Shown here: positions 1-15,616 of the stretch, piece by piece
Numbering within the stretch: position 1 is the stretch's first letter
Layout: each line of letters opens with the position of its first letter
Origin: a virus
Lineage: Duplodnaviria; Heunggongvirae; Uroviricota; Caudoviricetes
Reading direction: 5' to 3' (one strand)
DNA length: 29,964 nucleotides
IMG/VR virus record: IMGVR_UViG_2778261393_000002
Program-made: the position numbers and the translations under genes
The notes under the pieces: generated by a model
The model's database searches: none
The model's input: only the letters and a program-made list of their open reading frames with translations
Told to the model about the DNA's origin: nothing

Positions 1-355
1 CTGCCCGGTAAATTTCTCACGAAACTGAATGCGGTTAAGGTCGGTAAGTGACAGGTTAATCATGGCGCACCTCCTGGCGAATACGGGCGGCGAATACCAT
101 CACGCAGCCAGCCGGAGATTGCTGGCGTGCTTCCTGTTCGTTGGTGGCCTCAATGGTAATCACGCGCGGCTGTGCCGTGCTCAGGGCGATAAAACGCCAG
201 ATGTATTTATTCAGGTTGTGCGAGTCCCGCCCTTGCGGGTGTGTGGTATGATTTCTCATAGCTACCTCGATACTGTTGCTATCGTTGGTGGTTAGAAGCC
301 CCGTTACTGCTCCAACAGTGCGGGGTTTCGTCGTTTCTGTGCCTTGCATCAACAA

Positions 356-439
356 GGTGTAAGACACAATGTAAAATAACGGTGTCTTACACGTCAACCC
401 TTCAAAATAATTTTTTTTCGTGTATATTGTCTTACACCA
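356..439 (+). promoter_or_regulatory. Operator-like triple motif and putative promoter upstream of small gene 459..638
   Basis: GGTGTAAGACAC at 356-367, with reverse-complement copies GTGTCTTACAC at 382-392 and TGTCTTACACC at 429-439. The third copy overlaps a TATATT -10-like hexamer at 423-428. AAGGAG SD at 447-452 precedes the ATG at 459. Confidence 0.4.
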
Positions 440-458
440 AAAACATAAGGAGTTAGAC

Positions 459-638
459 ATGGCAACAGGTCCAAAGAATGCAAAATCACAATCTGTAACT
501 GCACGTATTGCCCATGAAATTATTGAAGGCATGGAAAAAGTGAAAGAAGAAGGCGAAAGTACAGGACAGTTTATAAGCGCAGCCATGCGTGGCGAGATCA
601 AACGCCGCCAGCGCCGCCAGGCCAAAGAATCAGAATAA
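459..638 (+). CDS. Small basic protein, 59 aa, function unknown
   Basis: ATG at 459 is 7 nt downstream of AAGGAG. Translation MATGPKNAKSQSVTARIAHEIIEGMEKVKEEGESTGQFISAAMRGEIKRRQRRQAKESE has a basic C-terminal tail. Family not recognised. Confidence 0.5.
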   Translation: MATGPKNAKSQSVTARIAHEIIEGMEKVKEEGESTGQFISAAMRGEIKRRQRRQAKESE

Positions 639-647
639 AAACAACCT

Positions 648-664
648 GCGCCGTGGTGTGAGGA
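648..664. repeat. 17-bp direct repeat GCGCCGTGGTGTGAGGA, copy 1
   Basis: Exact 17-mer, 10 nt after the stop of ORF 459..638. It can pair with CCGGCGC at 668-674 to form a hairpin. Confidence 0.6.
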
Positions 665-695
665 ACTCCGGCGCATTGCTTTACAGGTACACAGA

Positions 696-890
696 ATGAC
701 CAACAAAGAATCAACCAATACACCATCACCGGCACGGAAAAGACGGCGCAGAAAGATAGAGCATGAATCAGAAAGATTCGCGCCATGTGCTTTTGCCCTT
801 GAGCAATTCCTTAAAGAGTACAGGCGCACAAAAATGGGGTCGCATACCTGGAAAACATCACGACATGGTGATGTTGAAGAGCAGAAATAA
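696..890 (+). CDS. Hypothetical small basic protein, 64 aa
   Basis: Open frame with ATG start and weak SD. Its stop is followed by the second copy of the 17-bp repeat. Coding status uncertain. Confidence 0.25.
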   Translation: MTNKESTNTPSPARKRRRRKIEHESERFAPCAFALEQFLKEYRRTKMGSHTWKTSRHGDVEEQK

Positions 891-899
891 CCACTATCA

Positions 900-916
900 G
901 CGCCGTGGTGTGAGGA
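900..916. repeat. 17-bp direct repeat GCGCCGTGGTGTGAGGA, copy 2
   Basis: Exact second copy, 252 bp from copy 1, again about 10 nt after a small-ORF stop codon (890). Confidence 0.6.
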
Positions 917-1561
917 TCCATGGCACAAAGAAGTATCCAAGAGAAAAATGATGGACGCACAGAAACTAGATATACTCACCTCCTTTCTGGAAGAACGTAA
1001 ACGAAAATGGGGGATAAAACCCCATCCTTCCACCAGAGAATTACCAAGAGCATCAACAGAGTGTTTTTTGCTTGAGGATTTCATCAAAAAGAGCAGCCCT
1101 GTTTTGTGCAGGAATAAGCGATACAAGTAATCATTACCCACTCCAGGCAACAGGGAAAAAATTCCGCTAAAGCTTTGCCCACCAGCCGCAAATGTGGCAT
1201 TGTTGGTGATGCTCATGCGTTGGGGATAACGTGTAGCTTGTGTTGAAGGGCCACCGTAGCGGGTGGCCTTTGTTTTGCCTGTTATCCGGCAATTGTGGCG
1301 CTTCGTCACACGGTTGATATAATCCCACTGCTCAGATTCATTTTTTGCGCAGTAGGTTAATTGTTCACAAAGGCGCTCCGGCAACGGGGCGCTTTTTGTT
1401 TTTACCCACCAGCACAATAAAAATCTTCATTTTCCATTTTTGTAAAATTTCATGCTTTCCGGACGGCTGACCATATATCATTTTTTAGCAGAAGATTTTG
1501 CCTTGCTGGTGGGTAGCTTCCCGGTTAACACGATGTACCGTATAATCAGCACTGCGAGTGG

Positions 1562-2140
1562 TTACTGAATACGCTCACCAAAGTAAAACTCATGCTGATA
1601 TTCACGTATCAGCCTTTTTTCTTCTTCCTCCAGCTCACGCTTTTTGCGCTTACATGCCTGTAGCTCCCTCCCCTTCTCGCTGGCACTTATCTGATATTGC
1701 TCTTTACGGCGGGAAAAATCCTGTAATGCGCCCCACGGGATACCATAAGCCCCCGTTTTTCTGATACCCGGTATCACATTTCTGAATACCCAGTTACTGA
1801 AACGATGGGCGAACGTGCCAGGCGTCGTTGCTTTGCGGCTACGGGCTATTAGTTTGTAGAAACCTGACTCGCATACAGTTCGCATTGTTTGATTTCCGCC
1901 AAGGGTGGGTATTAAACACTCCCCCTTTTCATCATCATCGAGACGGCGTAACGCAACCTTGTGATCAACAATTTCCAGCGCAGCGCACACGTCAACTGCA
2001 ACAAACCACGGATCGCCGTTCAGATACACCACGCGAACGTTCACACCATCAAAGCGCAGAACGACCAGATCACGAATATCACAGAATTTTTTTACTAGAC
2101 GAGCGTCACCTTTGCCCGTCACGGCAATATTTTTATTCAT
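1562..2140 (-). CDS. Bro-N domain protein, phage antirepressor-like
   Basis: 192-aa ORF. N-terminal region (VRVVYLNGDPWFVAVDVCAALEI ... ESGFYKLIARSRKATTPGTFAHRFSNWVFRNVIPGIRKTGAYG) has the conserved Bro-N pattern. C-terminus is a charged coiled-coil-like tail. Confidence 0.7.
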   Translation of the reverse strand: MNKNIAVTGKGDARLVKKFCDIRDLVVLRFDGVNVRVVYLNGDPWFVAVDVCAALEIVDHKVALRRLDDDEKGECLIPTLGGNQTMRTVCESGFYKLIARSRKATTPGTFAHRFSNWVFRNVIPGIRKTGAYGIPWGALQDFSRRKEQYQISASEKGRELQACKRKKRELEEEEKRLIREYQHEFYFGERIQ

Positions 2141-2158
2141 CGCTTTTTACCTCACATA

Positions 2159-2183
2159 CAAAAAACCCCGCATTGAGCGGGGC
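2159..2183 (-). terminator. Rho-independent terminator downstream of alpA
   Basis: Stem CCCCGC (2166-2171) and GCGGGG (2177-2182) with 5-nt loop, followed on the minus strand by a T-run (plus-strand AAAAAA at 2160-2165). Confidence 0.6.
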
Positions 2184-2199
2184 TGTGTTTATCTCCTGG

Positions 2200-2466
2200 T
2201 TATTGCTGTTTTGTTTTTTCCGGTTTCCATCCTGGGTGCCAATCGCCACGGATCCACGCCTGAATCTCCGAGAGACGATAGCCAGCGGCACGTTCACCAA
2301 TCTTAATACGTTTTGGGAACTTACCTGTCTTTTCCAGTTTCCAGCGTGTTGAATTTGCCAGCGTAGTAAGTGCCACGCATTCTTTTTCACGAATGACACG
2401 ATCAATATCCGGCATTGCAGTAAAATCTTTTTCATCAACAAGTGAATAAACTGACATATCAAACAA
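2200..2466 (-). CDS. alpA: AlpA-family phage transcriptional regulator, excisionase-like
   Basis: Translation contains DRVIREKECVALTTLANSTRWKLEKTGKFPKRIKIG, typical of AlpA/Vis-type winged-helix proteins. Sits immediately downstream of and overlapping the integrase stop. Exact start uncertain (M1, M4 or M18). Confidence 0.75.
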   Translation of the reverse strand: MFDMSVYSLVDEKDFTAMPDIDRVIREKECVALTTLANSTRWKLEKTGKFPKRIKIGERAAGYRLSEIQAWIRGDWHPGWKPEKTKQQ

Positions 2467-3700
2467 CCTCTTTACTCAGTTCAATAACGTTATTATTAAA
2501 TCCGGCTATCGTGTTAAGGTAATTAACCCACATATTAAGAACCTCAAGTTTTTTCTTTACATGCTTGCTTTTATTATAAACACCCGCCACACCTTTAACT
2601 TTATGACCAAGCAGAAGCTCTACAATATAAGGATCGGCACCCATATCGTTAAGCATTGTTGAAAATGTACGCCTGAAATCATGTATGCACCACAGACCAT
2701 TTACATCATGCCCTAGCCGCCTGCATATCCGGCTTGCTGCTCCTGTTATTGTCGCTCGCTTCAGTGATCTACCGATAACACAATCCCGGTGCTTTGTTTC
2801 CGCATAAAGATTAATAACCCATTGTTTTATTCCATCAGGGACTGGTCTTACAATAACCTCGCCGTTCTTGCTGTGCTCTTTTGGAACTGTCCAAATCCAG
2901 TTTTTTAAATCCCATTCTTCCCAAGTGGATAACCGCGCCTCCTGCTGACGGCAACCAAACACCAGGCAGATAACCATAATTCTTCGGTTATGTATTGATG
3001 AAAGGGTAAGTAAATTGTTGCCATAGGCATAAGACCATACGTCAGCGGCTTCATTAATACTCAGAACACGATCCCTTATGCCTGCTGAACGTCCAACATA
3101 ACTAACGTTAATATCACCGAATGGATCGCAACTAATGTATTGCCTGATACGGCAAAAACGTAACGCCTGTTTAATATCAAGAAAAATAGCACCAGACATA
3201 ACAGGAGCATTTTTTTTAATTCTGTCAAATACAGTAAGCCAGGTATGCAATTTGCACTGTTCTATAGCCATATCTCCGATATATGGAAAAATATGCTTTT
3301 CAAATCTTTTTATTAAATACTCATGCTGCTTTCTGGCTGTCCTGGCGTGATTATCGTACCAGTAAAGCACCGCATCCCTTACAGTTACAGGGCGCATGTT
3401 TTTTTCAGCTACAAGTTTTATTTGTCTGCGAGGATCCAGATTTTCCGCCAGCCATTCACGGCACTGGTCGCGTAATCTCCTGGCGGCTGCCAGAGACATA
3501 TCAGGATAACGCCCAAGGGTCAGCCATACCGGAGGGGCATCCCTGCCGCCAATACGATAGTAAAAAACGAAACTAATTCCCCCAACCACGCTTACACGAA
3601 CAGATAGCCCCCGCCCATCAGCCATGATTTTTTGTCTGTCCTGCGGCTTACCTGCAAGACTTTTCAGAAGTTTGTCAGTCAGTTTATTCTCGATAGCCAT
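2459..3700 (-). CDS. int: Tyrosine integrase, P4-like
   Basis: 413 aa from MAIENKL (start codon 3698-3700). Phage-integrase catalytic region visible (HDFRRTF ... LLGHK ... VYN). Paired with alpA as in P4-family elements. The listed ORF extends 24 codons further upstream to 3772. Confidence 0.85.
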   Translation of the reverse strand: MAIENKLTDKLLKSLAGKPQDRQKIMADGRGLSVRVSVVGGISFVFYYRIGGRDAPPVWLTLGRYPDMSLAAARRLRDQCREWLAENLDPRRQIKLVAEKNMRPVTVRDAVLYWYDNHARTARKQHEYLIKRFEKHIFPYIGDMAIEQCKLHTWLTVFDRIKKNAPVMSGAIFLDIKQALRFCRIRQYISCDPFGDINVSYVGRSAGIRDRVLSINEAADVWSYAYGNNLLTLSSIHNRRIMVICLVFGCRQQEARLSTWEEWDLKNWIWTVPKEHSKNGEVIVRPVPDGIKQWVINLYAETKHRDCVIGRSLKRATITGAASRICRRLGHDVNGLWCIHDFRRTFSTMLNDMGADPYIVELLLGHKVKGVAGVYNKSKHVKKKLEVLNMWVNYLNTIAGFNNNVIELSKEVV

Positions 3701-3718
3701 ATGTAGCCTACACGTCAA

Positions 3719-3772
3719 TTTGCAATACACACCCCATCCAAACGCCAACTTGCAATACACATTGCAATACAC
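3719..3772. repeat. Three direct copies of TTGCAATACAC upstream of the integrase start
   Basis: Copies at 3720-3730, 3750-3760 and 3762-3772. The last two are tandem with a 12-bp period. They lie about 20-70 bp upstream of the int start codon. Confidence 0.6.
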
Positions 3773-3849
3773 AAAACCGCGAAAAACACGAAAGGTAATG
3801 AACGGTCATCATAAATACAAAAAACGACATTCCAGACATATCAAGGGTT

Positions 3850-4716
3850 TTAGTGGAGTTGATGAATGGTGGCGACAACTACGGGGAGATAATAGACATA
3901 AATGGCGCGAACCACCGCCGACTGCAGTTGCGTGGCCTGCAGTGTGTCGAGCATCTTGAGACGCTCCATTACAGAATAAAACTGGTTGGCCCCGCGGGTC
4001 TGCCCGTCTTCCTGTGGCTGAAACACATGGATCATTCCCGGTCGTCCGGAAGGCAGTGTTGCCGTAATTCGTGTCCATTTACTGACACCGTAGCCGGGCC
4101 AGTCATCATCCTGAACATGGTAGGCCAGCGCTTTTCCGTGTCGGTTTATTTCCACCCCGGCACGCATAAAACGATCGCCGGTACCATAACCGGGTGTACT
4201 GACACGCTTCGGGCTGATGGTTTTGAATTTCGTCCGGAATAATGACGTGGATTCCGCATCCCATACGGGCTGGACAAAAATTTCACCGTTAAACGTATGG
4301 ACCCCCACCCCTTCACGAATGAATTCGGTAAACGAACGACGCCCTTCCACATCCATCGTACCAAACACCGGATCGCAGTATTCCATCCACGCCGCCTCAA
4401 CATCTTCAATAAAAGCATGTGAATCTGCTTCCGACATCCCCAGCCAGCGCCAGTTGGGACGGTAACTCAGACGAAACATGTGCCCGACAATATGATCCTT
4501 ATGAATTTCCACTGCATTCGATGCAATACCGTTGTTACGGACCAGCTCATCCGCGCGGGCGTTACCCAGATGAATGGAAGGTAAGAGCGCCACGTCGGCA
4601 CTTTCCGGTGCAGGCAGCCATTCTGCCATTTGCCCACCGAACCCGGAACCACCACCAGAATATCCCATGCTTTGCCGTAAAGGCTGCCCATGAATATCCA
4701 CCAGTTCCCCGTTCAC
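3850..4716 (-). pseudogene. B: Lambda-like portal protein (gpB), N-terminal fragment only
   Basis: 288-aa ORF co-linear with the lambda gpB N-terminus as I recall it (YSGGGSGFGGQ, LLP..GNARADELVRNNG, LFRTKFKTISPKRVSTP, IHVFQPQEDGQTRGANQFYSVMERLKMLDTLQATQLQSA). Similarity ends near residue 271 (about nt 3900). Lambda gpB is about 533 aa, so the C-terminal half is missing. Confidence 0.8.
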
Positions 4717-4925
4717 AGCCCCACTCCTGCCGGGCCACGACGCCGTCCGGATACACCCAGCGCACTTTCCAGCTCTTCAATATACTGACGCAGTTCACCA
4801 ATTGTCGCCCGCGAATACTGAACCTGACGCCCGTCCTTGCTGACGGAAACCACAGCACGTCCGATCATCAGTTCATGTAACGCCCGGCGGGCATCGCATA
4901 GCATTTCATGCGTATAAATCATCAC
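4713..4925 (-). CDS. W: Head-tail joining protein, lambda gpW-like
   Basis: 70 aa. ARRALHELMIGRAVVSVSKDGRQVQYSRATIGELRQYIEELE ... RRRGPAG matches the lambda gpW pattern. Position between terminase large subunit and portal as in lambda. Confidence 0.75.
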   Translation of the reverse strand: MMIYTHEMLCDARRALHELMIGRAVVSVSKDGRQVQYSRATIGELRQYIEELESALGVSGRRRGPAGVGL

Positions 4926-6845
4926 TTATCCTCCACTCAGAGCAGCCGCGATTTCTTCAATAGTCATTTCATCGTCGTCCTGTTCATCTCTTCTGGCGCG
5001 GGCCAGTGCATCCAGATCCAGTTGCCACCGCTGAACGGAAATGCGCAGCGCTGCATAGGCATACACCAGACAGTCCAGAGCTTCATTACGCCGTTTTCTG
5101 GCATCCCACTGGAGTTTCACCCGCCCGTTCACAACTTTTTCAACCAGCTCTTCTGCCACGAGTTGTTTAGCTTCAACATCAGAAAAAATGTCCGGGTTAT
5201 CCGGAAAACGGAAGGTATACGGTGCGACTTCACTGGCAGATACCACCGGCAGGGCAAAACGCGCATACAGCATTTCCTTGACGGTATCGGAACCCACCTC
5301 ACACAAAAACACCCCACGCTGGTTTCGCTTTTTTGGCATGGTGATCACCGGCTTGCCGTACACCGACGCCCCTTTGATGGGGAGCACAAAAAAAGTGCCG
5401 TGTTTTCTGGATCGCTGATACACAATGTCCTGGTCAATACCACCGGTATCCCAGCAGACGCGGGAAATGGAAATTTCAGTGCCATCTGCATGACGGTATT
5501 TTTTCCGGATCACGGCATCAACGCGTTTAAGGGTGTCCTCATCTTCCGGTCTCCCCATGATGATCTGCTTGTCAATCAGAAAAGCTTCTTCGCCAGGAGC
5601 CCAGCCCCAGACATAAATCTCATAACGGTTTTTCTGAGAGTCGATCCCTGCGGTCAGGTAAACCACCCGCAGGGGAACCTGCGCATCATAGTGGCAGACT
5701 TTTTCCAGCAATAACTCAAAGCTCAGTTTTTCTGCCACAGCCTCTTCATAAGGCTCCCCCAGCGTGGTGTTAATGAACGTCTTGACGCCATTCGGATCCT
5801 TCAGTGCATCAAGCCAGTCATAAACAATCTGTACCCAGGTGGTGAACGGGCTGTATGCCGTCCAGATGTGGTACGAGATTGAGCGCGGTGGCGGGATTTC
5901 CTCATCACCGGCGCTGTAAAATGTCAGACCGTCACGCGTCCACATCCCGGTATTGTCACAAATCCACCGCCCGTCGGTCTGGTCAAGTTCCGACTGACGG
6001 ATCGCGCAGCCATTATGTTCACACAGGTAATACACCGTCTCCGGCTTGCCCTTCTCCCATTTCAGGCCAAAGGTTGTCGCATCATCGCCAAACTTCAGAT
6101 ACTGGGCTTCACCACAATGAGGGCATGGCACATAAAACCGCATAAAATGTGCAGATTCGTTCGCGGCTTTTTCAATCTGGCAAAAACCTTTAATTTTGGG
6201 CGTTGAGCCGCGTATGGATTTAGGCCATACCGAACCTTCGATACGCTTATCGCCAAGCAGAGTTGGTGAACCTTCTTTTTCCACATCCGGTTCAAACGAG
6301 GAGAGTTCGTCATAGCAGACCACATCCACAGATTTTTCACGGTAGTTTTTGGCAGCAGCTCCGCCCAGACACCAGAATCCCACACCGGAGGAGAAACGTT
6401 TCAGGGTAAGCGTGTTGTCCCGATGTTTTCTGCCAAACCACGGAGCCAGCTCCAGTAATACAGGAACGTCTCTTATCGTTGGTTCGACATGGGATTTCAT
6501 AAAATCTTCTGCCGCAGAATCTGTCGGCTGAAAAAGCAGGCTGTTACGGGATTTGTGTTCAATAAAATAAGCCTCCACCCCCAACAGCATTTTGGTGTAA
6601 CCAACACGCGCCGATTTAATCAGATTAACGGTGCGGATCCGGTCATTCCCCATGCTGTTCATGATGGCAACCTGAAACGGCAGTGTTTCCCATTGCCCGG
6701 GAGTATATGAAGACTCTTTTGGCAGATAATAATGCTGATCAGCCCACTGAACTGTCGTCAGTGGTACCGGAATATTGAGAGATACAAGCCCTGTTGCTAT
6801 CGCACCGGCTGCATTAGCTGCCTTCTGTGCGTCTGAAATCATCAA
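4926..6845 (-). CDS. A: Terminase large subunit, lambda gpA-like
   Basis: 639 aa, co-linear with lambda gpA along the whole length ([94 protein letters not shown]). Confidence 0.95.
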
Positions 6846-8045: not shown

Positions 8046-8912
8046 CTAAGCGAGGTTCTGGTTTTCAAATTGTTCCGGACTGAGGCCGCCACACCAACTG
8101 TGCCGCCGCCACCGATTGTAATCACATTCGATATAATTAAACACCGTTGCCCGCATTATTTCCCGGCTGATAAAGTGTTCTCCATGGATACATTCCACTT
8201 TCAGCGAATGAAAGAAGCTTTCCACGCAGGCATTATCGTAGCAGCAACCTTTTGCGCTCATACTTCCACGCAGATTATGCCGCTTCAGTTGCGCCTGATA
8301 ATCTGCTGAACAGTACTGGCCTCCACGGTCCGTGTGAACGATAACGTTCCAGGGCCTCTTACGCCGCCACAGCGCCATCTGCAGGGCATCGCAGGCCAGT
8401 TGCGCCGTCATGCGTGGCGACATTGACCAGCCAATAACGGCACGTGACCACAGGTCAATGACCACTGCCAGATACAGCCAGCCTTCATCTGTACGTAAGT
8501 ACGTGATGTCTCCTGCCCACTTCTGGTTCGGGCCACTGGCGTAAAAATCCTGCTCCAACAGATTTTCTGACACAGGCAGGCCGTGTGCGCGGTAGCTGAC
8601 CGGGCTGAACTTCCGGGAGGCCTTTGCCCTCAGTCCCTGACGGCGCAGGCTTGCCGCCACGGTTTTTTCGTTAAAGGGGTAACCCTGAGCACGCAGTTCA
8701 TCCGTCAGGCGTGGGGCACCGTAACGCTGTTTTGACCGGGTAAAAGCCGCGAGGACAACGCTGTCGCAGTGTTGGCGGAACTGCTGACGCGTGCTTATCC
8801 TTGTCCGCCGCTGACACCACGTATACCAGCCGCTGCGGGCCACCCGGAGCACGCGGCACATTGCTTTGATGCTGAACTCAGCCTGATGTTTTTCAATAAA
8901 GACATACTTCAT
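8046..8912 (-). CDS. insF: IS3 transposase OrfB
   Basis: 288 aa with DDE transposase/integrase core (WAGDITYL ... HTDRGGQY ... [11 protein letters not shown]). Matches IS3 InsF as remembered. Confidence 0.95.
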
Positions 8913-10616: not shown

Positions 10617-11162
10617 CTACACCACCACGCGCTCTTTCATCCAGCCATACACGAACGATTCATTAGCCTCACGTTTTTCTGCCAGTTCAAGGTAGCGATC
10701 TCCCTGCGTACAGTTTAGCGCTGTCAGAATCACCAACTCACCATCCCTGCCACGTTTTGACAAATAGGCGCGTAACGCATTAATGGTACGTGGGCCGATA
10801 CAACCATCTGCATCAATGTCCGGATACAACTCTCCTTTCTGGTTAAATACATTAAGCCAGCGCTGAAGCATTCTGGATGCCACTGACGGCCCCATGTTTA
10901 CGCCGGTATCACACAATTCAGCAGCGATCTCCGGAGACAGGCTCGCAACCTTGTGAAAACGTGGCCCGTACCAGTAGTCCGCTTCAAGAATTTCGAGGGC
11001 CTGCCCACGCGTCAGGTCACGAATATCCCCCTGATAACCGTGTGCACGGGCAACTTTTCCAGTAATGCCCCATTTAGTCGGACCACCTTTATCATCAGGG
11101 TGGTTGACGTAGCCGCCCTCTTTGCCAAGAACAGCATCAAAAATTTCATCTTTCGACTTCAT
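10617..11162 (-). CDS. Endolysin, GH108-type lysozyme with peptidoglycan-binding domain
   Basis: Start taken at MKSKDEIF (codon 11160-11162). Motif LGKEGGYVNHPDDKGGPTKWGIT is characteristic of the GH108 N-terminal domain. Follows two holin-like genes. Confidence 0.75.
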   Translation of the reverse strand: MKSKDEIFDAVLGKEGGYVNHPDDKGGPTKWGITGKVARAHGYQGDIRDLTRGQALEILEADYWYGPRFHKVASLSPEIAAELCDTGVNMGPSVASRMLQRWLNVFNQKGELYPDIDADGCIGPRTINALRAYLSKRGRDGELVILTALNCTQGDRYLELAEKREANESFVYGWMKERVVV

Positions 11163-11163
11163 C

Positions 11164-11442
11164 TCAGCGCCTTCGTAATACAAAGATTTTTGAAACGTTC
11201 CCACGAGCACGAACCACCAGCACGCAGAACAGCAGGTTAAAAAACACTTCCAGCCAGCCCGTTGCTAACGGGCGACCACACAGATAGCTGAGGGGCGCAA
11301 AGGCATACAGCAGCATCAGCAACCAGGCCAGCCATGACATCAGCGGTTTATGTCTGGAATCACGACGACGATAAAAAAAGAGCGTCAGCACGATAACCGT
11401 GCATAACGCCACATTCAGCAATCCGGGAAGGTTACTTAACAT
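11164..11442 (-). CDS. Holin or antiholin-like small membrane protein
   Basis: 92 aa from MLSNLPGLL with 2-3 predicted hydrophobic helices and a basic C-terminus. Located between a holin-like gene and the endolysin. Confidence 0.55.
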   Translation of the reverse strand: MLSNLPGLLNVALCTVIVLTLFFYRRRDSRHKPLMSWLAWLLMLLYAFAPLSYLCGRPLATGWLEVFFNLLFCVLVVRARGNVSKIFVLRRR

Positions 11443-12003: not shown

Positions 12004-12747
12004 TTATTCTTGAGTAACACTTAAACTCATCTCATTGAATGCAGCCATCCTGTAACCTGCCGGTGTAACACCAAAATAACTCCTGAATACGCTGATAAAA
12101 TAAGATGTAAAATTATAGCCACACTGAGCAGCGATTCTGTTGATGGCGCAACGAGATTGATTCAACAGCATTGCTGCCATTCTCATTCTCTCTGTAAGCA
12201 ACAACTCACTGAAACAGGTGCCTTCTTCTTTCAGTCTTTTTTTTAACAAACTTTCACTGATACATAACCGCGAAGACACATCTCTCAGAGTCCAGTTTGC
12301 TGCAATGTCCGTACGAAACAATGCACTAAGCCTGTCACTAATATTGCCAATACACGCGGTCAGAAACGACGAAAACATTTTCTCTGATGAGAAAAACGCC
12401 AGACACGAAAAGGAAAGCATTTCCGCTAAATTGTCCGTATGAATCTTTTCCTCACAAAGATAATCAATCAGGATGCCCATCAATTCTGCCTTGGGAAAAC
12501 TCACGCAAAGATATCGTGGTATTTGCCGGACTAAAACTACATCCTGTTTTTCGTCTCCACACAACAGGTAACGGATAATTGTCGATTCACTGAGACTTAT
12601 TCGCCGAAAACATTCCGAAAAGGGCAATAACGATCCAGCTCCCCCCCTGACAAGAAGTGCACTACCACTTTCCAGAGAGAGCTCTTTTCCTTCAAAGAGC
12701 ACAACAAACGGGGAATGAACAAAAACAACAGAACAAGCTTCATTCAT
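12004..12747 (-). CDS. AraC-family transcriptional regulator, AppY/GadX-like
   Basis: C-terminal AraC HTH signature (SESLLKKRLKEEGTCFSELLLTERMRMAAMLLNQSRCAINRIAAQCGYNFTSYFISVFRSYFGVTPAGY). N-terminal CSVVF motif shared with DLP12 AppY as recalled. Start taken at MNEACSVVF. Confidence 0.8.
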   Translation of the reverse strand: MNEACSVVFVHSPFVVLFEGKELSLESGSALLVRGGAGSLLPFSECFRRISLSESTIIRYLLCGDEKQDVVLVRQIPRYLCVSFPKAELMGILIDYLCEEKIHTDNLAEMLSFSCLAFFSSEKMFSSFLTACIGNISDRLSALFRTDIAANWTLRDVSSRLCISESLLKKRLKEEGTCFSELLLTERMRMAAMLLNQSRCAINRIAAQCGYNFTSYFISVFRSYFGVTPAGYRMAAFNEMSLSVTQE

Positions 12748-12969
12748 ATCAATTGCCCTGACATTACTGGTCACAAGATAAGTATATATCGATTTACAAA
12801 AATACAAGCCGAAAGACCAGTATTCGCAACCACCAGCGCGTTTAACGTCCTGTACCGTTTTTCAGGCATAAAAAACCCGCTCAGTGGCGGGTTTAAGCTG
12901 TTTGGCGTAGTAACCACTCTTAACAGGATATTCAACTTTTTACGATCGTAAAGCGTTCGGGGAAAATTT

Positions 12970-14485: not shown

Positions 14486-15616
14486 TCATGCTTTCCACTT
14501 CAGGACACCCGAATTTCTCGCGTGCATTAAAAAACGAATCAGCAACAACAGCTGGCTGCCGTGTTTTTCTTCAAAATCTTTTACCCCGGCGTGCAGTTCG
14601 TTATGACATTTACGGCACAGCGGAATAACAAACAAATCATCAGCCTTTGTTCCCATCCCTCCCTGACCGTGACCAATCAGGTGATGGGGATCGTCGGCTG
14701 GTTGACCACAACACGCACACGGCTGTGTCTTCACCCAGCGCGTATATTTCTCATTTACCCAACGGCGACGTTTAGGTCGCCTCATGAAAGATTCCGGAGA
14801 CTCCGGATCAACGGTGATGCATACCACCGTCTTTTCCTGTGATGGGTTTTGTTGCTGGTGGGCGTGAGGCAACGGTGCAAGATTTTTTGTGCGCTGTTTC
14901 AATATGCTGGTGGCGGTCTGCTCTCCCGGTACGATGTCGCTTTCGCGGTACACCGAGCAGTTTTTTTCCGCTGGTAATCCCAGCGAGCGACGTAATACCG
15001 CTTCCGGTAGCGCGTCCGCCACCTGATTGCGGACCGCCCACCAGGATAATTCAGCCAGAGATAATTCACGCTCCTGCGTACCGCTTATTGCGTGACCGAT
15101 GACGTCAATCATCCATGCTGACAGGTTTTGATGAGCAAGCTGCCCGAGTGATTCGGATGTCTGGTCACGCAACTGGTTGTCGCAGTGCCAGCACAACACC
15201 ATCGCGCCGGTACCGTAACGATGTATGACGATTTCACTGTGATGATAGTCACCATGAGGCCACTGGCAGGATTTGACATGACGCAACAGCCAGTCAGACA
15301 GTGCCCCAGCGCCGCCAGCAGCACGAATCACCCGCTCATCGCTGAAAAATGGCAGTAATGATTTATCCTCCGCCAGCGGCTGGCGAACGGCAGGGACGAC
15401 TCCGGACGGCAGACCGCGCATGCTTTTCGGTTCAGGCTCCACCAGCACTCGAGGGTTATGAAATACTTGCATGGATTCACGGCCCGGCCTAAGGACCACC
15501 AGCCCAAGTTCCGGTACCAGAACAGGTCGAAGTAATATCCGCACGTTACCTCCAGATCCGTTGCTGGTATGTGCGGGATGGGCGCGGTGGGCGTTCGGAA
15601 TAAGGGAGCCTGACAT
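14486..15616 (-). CDS. DUF968-domain protein, YdfU-like
   Basis: C-terminal Cys/His-rich domain (CACCGQPADDPHHL ... IPLCRKCHNELH) typical of DUF968 proteins in lambdoid nin regions. N-terminal start uncertain (M1 at 15616 overlaps the upstream ORF; alternative Met at 15472). Confidence 0.7.
   Translation of the reverse strand: MSGSLIPNAHRAHPAHTSNGSGGNVRILLRPVLVPELGLVVLRPGRESMQVFHNPRVLVEPEPKSMRGLPSGVVPAVRQPLAEDKSLLPFFSDERVIRAAGGAGALSDWLLRHVKSCQWPHGDYHHSEIVIHRYGTGAMVLCWHCDNQLRDQTSESLGQLAHQNLSAWMIDVIGHAISGTQERELSLAELSWWAVRNQVADALPEAVLRRSLGLPAEKNCSVYRESDIVPGEQTATSILKQRTKNLAPLPHAHQQQNPSQEKTVVCITVDPESPESFMRRPKRRRWVNEKYTRWVKTQPCACCGQPADDPHHLIGHGQGGMGTKADDLFVIPLCRKCHNELHAGVKDFEEKHGSQLLLLIRFLMHARNSGVLKWKA

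Follow-up and report, generated by a model that had tools for sequence, protein, structure and literature searches.

A stretch of viral DNA of 29,964 nt, called the window in what follows, carries near its first position three copies of a short repeat, the last of them just before a gene for a 59-residue protein, and the arrangement raises the question of which protein reads the copies and which promoters are controlled through them. The earlier note on this DNA took the array for the operators of a repressor-controlled switch. Comparison with related loci supports that reading, inasmuch as the three boxes are fixed on conserved promoter hexamers and their variable cores change together, and it is quite likely, as far as sequence comparison can tell, that the boxes are operators of the 59-residue protein itself, acting as an autoregulated repressor on the replication operon of a phage satellite.

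By its gene content the region is the right end of a phage satellite of the helper-embedded PICI type, with a layout as described by Tommasini et al. (PMC10111431): int, alpA and Bro-N zones are found together with an interrupted lambdoid late gene, and the replication zone lies outside the window. Portal, gpA and Nu1 sequences adjoin the integrase gene, and the uninterrupted portal of other E. coli strains matches the window from 3897 at 100% identity, which places the junction at ~3897 and indicates that the island's insertion site is the portal gene of a lambdoid prophage. The features of the locus, by position, are:

62-259, minus strand: icd-like gene, 66 aa (NF033153, 69.6 bits), the first gene of the leftward operon
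244-337, plus strand: probable ~80-nt cis-antisense RNA opposite the icd-like leader and its ribosome-binding site, with an extended -10 TGgTATGAT (244-252), a predicted start near 259, a first stem-loop at 268-284 and a second, terminator-like one at 295-329 that a T-rich tail follows as far as 337
356-367: box 1, GGTGTAAGACAC, its core inverted relative to boxes 2 and 3 in the window
368-397, minus strand: P-left, predicted sigma-70-type promoter, -35 TTGACG (397-392), 18-nt spacer, -10 TACATT (373-368)
381-392: box 2, GGTGTCTTACAC, found by repeat finder and by direct reading
401-428, plus strand: P-right, predicted promoter, -35-like TTCAAA (401-406), 16-nt T-rich spacer, -10 TATATT (423-428)
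427-438: box 3, TTGTCTTACACC, a direct copy of box 2 (10/10 over 428-437)
459-638, plus strand: small YlcI/YnfO-family gene, 59 aa, with AAGGAG at 447-452 and ATG at 459
696-890 and 948-1130, plus strand: two small ORFs that form a short rightward operon with the ylcI-like gene
1562-2140, minus strand: Bro-N antirepressor-like gene (Pfam; PHROG anti-repressor families)
2200-2466, minus strand: alpA (Pfam)
2459-3772, minus strand: tyrosine integrase gene (Pfam)
past the integrase gene (3772-4716 for the portal junction): lambda-family portal fragment, terminase gpA and Nu1 (profile matches)

The rightward operon ends at terminator-like hairpins (1246-1271 and 1369-1396), and its ORF at 696-890 matches phrog_21027, to which PHROG assigns no function. 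A 42-nt direct repeat (634-675 and 886-927, plus strand; 76% identical, core GCGCCGTGGTGTGAGGA) recurs behind two stop codons, that of the ylcI-like gene and that of the small ORF after it; a role in translational coupling, in processing or in structure is conceivable. The interval between alpA and the Bro-N gene contains a hairpin that is rich in GC and ends in a U-tail (GCCCCGCTCAATGCGGGGTTTTTT; 2158-2185, minus strand); it is also a weak Trp_leader match and looks like an intrinsic terminator or attenuator within the alpA-bro transcription unit. In the related island H1/L001, where the replication zone was seen, the leftward operon runs on from the icd-like gene into DUF4222 and a primase-like gene with DUF927. 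The RefSeq Icd-like coding sequence of that island (NZ_AP027709.1, 11993-12400) is 136 aa long, runs through the operator region and overlaps the ylcI start, and the window has a long stop-free frame of the same kind (56-1417, minus strand); since ATG 259 with its GAGGT Shine-Dalgarno sequence (66 aa) is the more plausible start, the start in the database is probably wrong. The helper prophage region further contains an IS3-family transposase with rve domains (8046-8912, minus strand), an AraC-family regulator (12004-12807, minus strand), a GH108 endolysin (10617-11210) and a DUF968/HNH gene (14486-15616). Two outside candidates for comparison were set aside: the PerC-like repressor that the EcCIMP1 paper reports is unrelated to the 59-residue protein, and a CFT073 region taken for EcCICFT073 proved to be a lambdoid prophage.

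The repeat array is real and well above chance. At one mismatch or fewer the 11-mer GTGTCTTACAC has three matches in the whole window (357-367, 382-392 and 427-437), all within 82 bp, against a mean of 0.30 in 100 dinucleotide shuffles, and allowing two mismatches adds background matches only. An inverted pair with a 14-bp spacer had been reported, and the repeat finder recovers it as 11-nt arms at 357-367 and 382-392 that are 100% complementary and 14 nt apart; the third copy likewise lies over the -10-like hexamer as described, sharing the last two bases of TATATT, and the well-signalled gene, 59 codons to 638, does follow directly downstream. The copies hold up as copies, but reverse complementarity between the 12-mers is not exact, and the unit shared by all three is an 11-mer with the dyad frame GTG-N5-CAC.

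What lies beneath the boxes is apparently two divergent promoters rather than one, the promoters and start sites in the window being consensus-scan predictions. Box 1 abuts the P-left -10 (TACATT) and covers the predicted P-left start site (expected near 361; that of P-right near 435), box 2 sits in the first part of the P-left -35/-10 spacer and touches the last base of the -35, and box 3 overlaps the last 2 nt of the P-right -10 together with the predicted start site. The claim that the array covers the promoter of the small gene is therefore to be kept for box 3 only, boxes 1 and 2 being placed on the divergent leftward promoter, which is predicted to drive the icd-like gene and the replication genes past the window edge. 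Repeated sub-sites over the promoter to be regulated are a mark of ribbon-helix-helix (RHH) operators, and here the -35, spacer, -10 and +1 are each overlapped or abutted.

This arrangement recurs in relatives of the locus. Through relatives of the small protein about 180 related loci were fetched (13 from GTDB species genomes, 80 from IMG/VR, 80 from metagenomes and 5 from exact-protein look-ups), and promoters and positions were counted over the 102 unique upstream regions among them. Three boxes stand at the same places in every one of the ~180 loci: box 3 is fixed at -32 from the ylcI-like ATG (102 unique upstream regions), box 2 lies at -77 in nearly all loci, and box 1 at -99 to -111, two classes having it at about -110 and the others at -99 to -104. 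In the M12/T14 and Q12/N14 classes (e.g. L006 and L010; classes are named here by residues 12 and 14 of the small protein) boxes 1 and 2 are ~33-34 bp apart as against 22-26 bp, so that box 1 is displaced by about one helical turn and comes to stand ~11 nt from the leftward -10. The promoter hexamers are conserved with the boxes. The P-left -35 reads TTGA(C/A/G)(G/A) in 101/102 unique regions and is followed 17-18 nt downstream by TAnnnT in 100/101; the P-right -10 is TATACT, TATATT, TATAGT or TATAAT in 87/102, with a class-weighted consensus of GtGTATAcTG after the T-tract, and the class-weighted consensus of the whole region is GTG-N4-cCAC.TCAA ... T-tract ... GtGTATAcTG....cCACC.

From this geometry repression appears likelier than activation. 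Occupation of boxes 1 and 2 would obstruct RNA polymerase at P-left and keep the icd-like/replication operon silent, and occupation of box 3 would shut the promoter of the small gene itself, giving negative autoregulation only at higher protein levels. The third box opens with CTG or TTG in place of GTG, since two of its bases are shared with the -10, its core sometimes deviates as well, and it resembles boxes 1 and 2 less than these resemble each other; it is therefore usually a weaker copy and probably the weakest site, so that the replication promoter would be shut earlier than that of the small gene. Single-linkage clustering on box 3 alone merged two classes owing to the frequent degeneracy of this box, and class was then set by the protein together with boxes 1 and 2.

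An unlikely alternative, though one with arguments of its own, is that the small RHH protein binds the boxes and yet does not act simply as a repressor, being instead one part of a Cro/Mnt-like switch or an activator of P-left, in which case its main role might be timing in induction rather than quiescence of the island. At immI of phage P22 the RHH protein Mnt is a repressor of one promoter and an activator of its divergent partner, and a box that falls within a promoter spacer might in principle serve activation instead of repression; here every locus has a P-left spacer of 17-18 nt that encloses box 2, and the 18 nt of the window are non-optimal. Published work on Gram-negative PICIs moreover finds their induction to depend on an activator, AlpA, and reports no repressor (PMC6092414). 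Against activation, boxes 1 and 3 overlap or abut -10 hexamers and cover predicted start sites, which is the classical geometry of steric repression. To our knowledge no RHH protein activates from inside a spacer.

If the 59-residue protein is a repressor acting through these boxes, protein and boxes should be matched to each other, and the comparison of loci bears directly on this. The GTG-N5-CAC frame is constant, and the core varies by lineage with all three boxes of one locus sharing the same core. At least 12 core types occur among the related loci: TCTTA, TGGCC, AAATA, AATGC, AATCG, AACAC, ACGGA, TCGGA, TCAGC, GA(A/C)TC, TT(A/G)AA and CTAAC. Some classes have perfect 11-bp palindromes (GTGGAATCCAC, GTGTCGGACAC and GTGTTAAACAC) and other cores are asymmetric; whether box 1 is inverted or direct also depends on the class. 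Palindromic cores together with both orientations of box 1 fit a symmetric dimer and speak against RNA pairing between boxes. The class-specific boxes are also confined to their place, with 306 occurrences in operator regions and 2 in the other ~560 kb of fetched sequence. That three separate sites change in concert requires a matching reader encoded by the island.

In the small protein, positions 12 and 14 are the most variable of the N-terminal part (2.5 and 2.7 bits) and are polar or charged, N7, K9, S10 and R16 are invariant, and positions 13, 15 and 17 are hydrophobic or small (V/L/I/A-like), an alternation as expected for a strand with one DNA-facing side. The residue pair at 12 and 14 maps one-to-one to the box core, and the class-by-box matrix is diagonal with the sole exception of two classes whose boxes are 1 nt apart. 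The pairs and their boxes are:

S12/T14 (the window protein): GTGTCTTACAC
A12/K14 or S12/K14: GTGTGGCCCAC
M12/T14: GTGAAATACAC
Q12/V14: GTGAATGCCAC
Q12/N14: GTGAATCGCAC
Q12/S14 (with L11): GTGAACACCAC
K12/S14: GTGACGGACAC
R12/D14: GTGTCGGACAC
K12/E14: GTGTCAGCCAC
K12/Q14: GTGGA(A/C)TCCAC
T12/A14: GTGTT(A/G)AACAC
Q12/A14 (with T11): GTGCTAACCAC

Such co-variation is what would be expected of an RHH protein whose alternate outward strand residues set base specificity. A rarer form of the protein stands somewhat apart: in L071, L089, L091 and ~29 similar loci a 100-aa S12/T14 variant ends in a C-terminal helical extension that replaces the basic EIKRRQRR tail, its boxes are degenerate (GTGTAAGTAAC, GTGGCTTACAT and TTGTCTTACAC, plus an extra partial box), and two copies can be found within one genome. 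Several islands can occur in one genome, at up to 6 places in E. coli. Only two pairs of loci from the same genome were available; the class differs in one pair and is the same in the other.

Since the boxes lie less than 100 bp from the N-terminal codons and are inherited with them, part of the co-variation could be linkage, and four observations of decoupling or prediction argue for function beyond a shared descent of boxes and strand codons. The correspondence was used prospectively, the box being predicted from residues 12/14 for three proteins previously unexamined, and the look-ups agreed with the rule: the T12/A14 proteins of Edwardsiella tarda and Yersinia have GTGTT(A/G)AACAC boxes, the same as the E. 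coli T12/A14 locus, and a Q12/V14 protein with other residues at 13 and 15 has GAATGCCAC boxes. The remainder of the protein does not follow the class, residues 17-52 being up to 94% identical between classes and down to 44% inside a class. Box class appears decoupled, too, from every other gene within ~2.5 kb, the replication initiator lying partly beyond that distance. The breakpoints of these exchanges fall at ~-160 by pairwise alignment, and in one pair at ~+120; one locus, L015, is a mosaic with a class-G-like left flank, class-A boxes and strand, and class-D-like helices.

These mosaics also bear on the very unlikely possibility that something else reads the boxes, be it AlpA, Bro-N, the Icd-like protein, a primase or initiator for which the boxes would be iterons, or a host protein, and that the match to the N-terminus is linkage. 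The boxes do adjoin the N-terminal codons and would be co-inherited with them, PHROG families that match the Icd-like protein are labelled "transcriptional repressor", and repeated short boxes are in principle possible iterons. In L048, however, AlpA is 100% and Bro-N 99.5% identical to the window proteins, and the boxes are of a different type (GTGTGGCCCAC). The 2.4-kb left flanks, with the icd-like and next genes, and the 2.6-kb right flanks are 97-99% identical between loci of different class (left: L050 vs L142 98.9%, L083 vs L130 97.2%, L079 vs L169 97.8%; right: L016 vs L132 99.2%, window vs L048 96.8%). A host factor would not explain at least 12 island-specific core types, and, with regard to iterons, there are only three boxes, tied to promoter hexamers, and their type is independent of the 2.4-kb left flank, the full primase/initiator gene lying beyond it. 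The variable positions of the small protein are, moreover, exactly the alternate outward-facing residues of the strand. The near-identical flanks around different box classes point to the small protein as the specificity reader, and of the binders that the earlier note had put forward it is the one that is retained, with residues 12 and 14 co-varying with the core, while AlpA and Bro-N are effectively excluded as specificity readers by the L048 comparison.

The 59-residue protein belongs by profile to the YlcI/YnfO family (NCBIfam NF041551, 67.5 bits against a cut-off of 30, residues 9-50), whose name its RefSeq homologues carry, and is predicted to be an RHH DNA-binding protein. Structure prediction, run as monomer only on database homologues, gives the strand-helix-helix fold of the RHH (MetJ/Arc/CopG) superfamily, the strand falling at about residues 10-17 and the two helices at 19-28 and 35-58, and assignment to the superfamily draws on this predicted fold and on the co-variation pattern. 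In sequence searches, Pfam gave no family for the protein at E<=1, DUF3950 (the domain of K-12 YlcI/YnfO) and every curated RHH family included, and a profile search of PDB sequences returned chance matches only and no relative. A weak hhalign match to Arc (probability 11%, E 0.0028, 24 columns) sets residues 12, 14 and 16 on Gln9, Asn11 and Arg13 of Arc, the Arc sequence having been checked against 1arq. These three Arc residues are the ones that contact bases in the Arc-operator structure. Other proteins named along with the evidence for the small protein as reader are MazE6, AmrZ, HicB, omega (1irq, 2bnw), NikR and ORF56, as well as Arc (1arq).

The family is small: in a set of 1.84 billion representatives the profile finds only 90 clusters (50% identity) at E<=0.001, and these clusters contain at least 35 further combinations of residues 11, 12 and 14. 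The ylcI (L176, 6252-6446) and ynfO (L177, 4757-4990) genes of E. coli K-12 encode distant paralogues with the same strand-helix-helix pattern (TTRNIRFP...) and adjoin the Nu1-like nohD and nohA genes in cryptic prophages. The three-box array was not seen on inspection of the 200 nt upstream of either gene, where a different inverted repeat, CGTCA-N13-TGACG, is found.

With the small protein as the probable repressor, the recognition may be pictured as follows. One RHH dimer would bind each 11-bp GTG-N5-CAC box with its two-stranded sheet in the major groove, the dyad frame with its palindromes in some classes being consistent with a symmetric dimer; the outward-facing residues 12 and 14, Ser and Thr in the window protein, would read the variable core, and the invariant Arg16 may contact the constant GTG/CAC flanks. 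A box of 11 bp is long for a single RHH sheet, so that the stoichiometry and the reader of GTG/CAC are uncertain.

Action at the level of RNA after the fashion of P4, where seqA/seqB/seqC and CI RNA pair with the transcript to cause termination, can be set aside as scarcely credible, since for all that the element is P4/PICI-like with an icd-like gene, that such islands can encode C4/isrK-type immunity RNAs (PMC10111431) and that box 1 of the window is complementary to boxes 2 and 3, in several classes the three boxes all run in the same direction, as direct repeats, and cannot pair with one another, box 2 lies upstream of both predicted starts and hence outside both predicted transcripts, and a GTG-N5-CAC dyad that is a perfect 11-bp palindrome in some classes is expected of a dimeric protein. 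No P4-type immunity RNA was recognised, Rfam giving no C4 or isrK match at E<=1 over 1-6000 or at E<=10 over 150-480; matches at lax thresholds, to miRNA models on the inverted repeat and to Trp_leader on a terminator, were rejected as chance.

An RNA of another kind does probably lie beside the array. The plus-strand element between box 1 and the icd-like start is a probable cis-antisense RNA, and it has no Rfam match at the same thresholds and ranges. Compensatory changes occur in 15/18 pairs, with many G.U pairs possible on the plus strand only, and the summed MFE over 111 sequences is -3862 kcal/mol for the plus strand vs -2875 kcal/mol for the minus strand. A TAnnnT hexamer stands 42-43 nt upstream of a conserved GGTTAGA in 112/119 unique loci vs a background of 3.8%, and it is kept across several codon combinations of the icd-like N-terminus. 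The element belongs to the same swappable module, but its hairpin type is not linked to box class.

As a mechanism, autoregulation by an RHH repressor that acts on divergent promoters is conventional and of the classical kind; what appear to be undescribed so far are the family, its role in satellites and its many swappable specificities, and the library of papers that was searched has no description of the boxes, of YlcI/YnfO-family function or of the whole system. The more far-reaching reading, which is possible but somewhat doubtful, is that this is the missing immunity or master-repressor module of many enterobacterial satellites, with dozens of specificities, an antisense back-up and release by antirepressor. 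The replication operon would then be kept silent until helper induction, exchangeable specificities would allow satellites to reside together without cross-regulation, the cis-antisense RNA on the icd-like leader would serve as back-up, and derepression may come via a helper- or island-encoded (Bro-N/Ant-like) antirepressor. Gram-negative satellites have been described as unidirectionally transcribed and without a clear global repressor (PMC6092414), so a divergent regulatory module in them would be of some consequence, and the uncharacterised family that gives K-12 ylcI and ynfO their name would acquire a testable function. The cassette of ~280 bp, operators together with recognition strand, appears to be swapped between otherwise near-identical islands, and its at least 12 matched protein/operator pairs form a natural table of RHH-DNA specificity and a source of small orthogonal repressors; if the reading is true, the table of residues 12/14 and cores is a ready-made recognition code for the engineering of orthogonal RHH repressors.

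The systems nearest to this one in function and layout are Arc/Mnt at P22 immI, CopG with antisense RNAII in the copy-number control of plasmid pMV158, and omega of pSM19035. Arc and Mnt are likewise small autoregulating RHH repressors, with operators in the spacer and over the -10/+1 of closely spaced divergent promoters, and the alternate strand residues with which Arc reads bases align with 12/14/16 of the 59-residue protein in the weak hhalign register. They differ in having no detectable common sequence family with it (hhalign probability 11%), in being two proteins with different operators where here one protein faces three similar 11-bp boxes, and in controlling ant rather than a satellite icd-like/replication operon. 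CopG (with RNAII, and in the same connection CopB/CopA of R1) is co-transcribed with rep and acts on one pseudo-symmetric element, whereas the repressor proposed here is divergently transcribed and has three separate boxes, and its antisense RNA is predicted only. Omega binds contiguous heptads cooperatively, unlike the present boxes, which are 22-46 bp apart and tied to promoter elements.

Two further systems are alike in logic rather than in fold. In lambdoid immunity (CI/Cro with OR/OL) the recognition element and its operators are exchanged jointly between near-identical genomes, as they appear to be here, and many immunity types result; those regulators are helix-turn-helix proteins, whereas the present case involves a predicted RHH protein, a cassette of ~280 bp and a satellite, with no Cro-type second regulator identified. 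The master repressors Stl/Rpr of the Gram-positive PICIs are unrelated to the 59-residue protein in fold and size, and inactivation by a helper protein belongs to their side of the comparison, but they share with it the position of a divergent regulator between the integration genes and the satellite replication operon.
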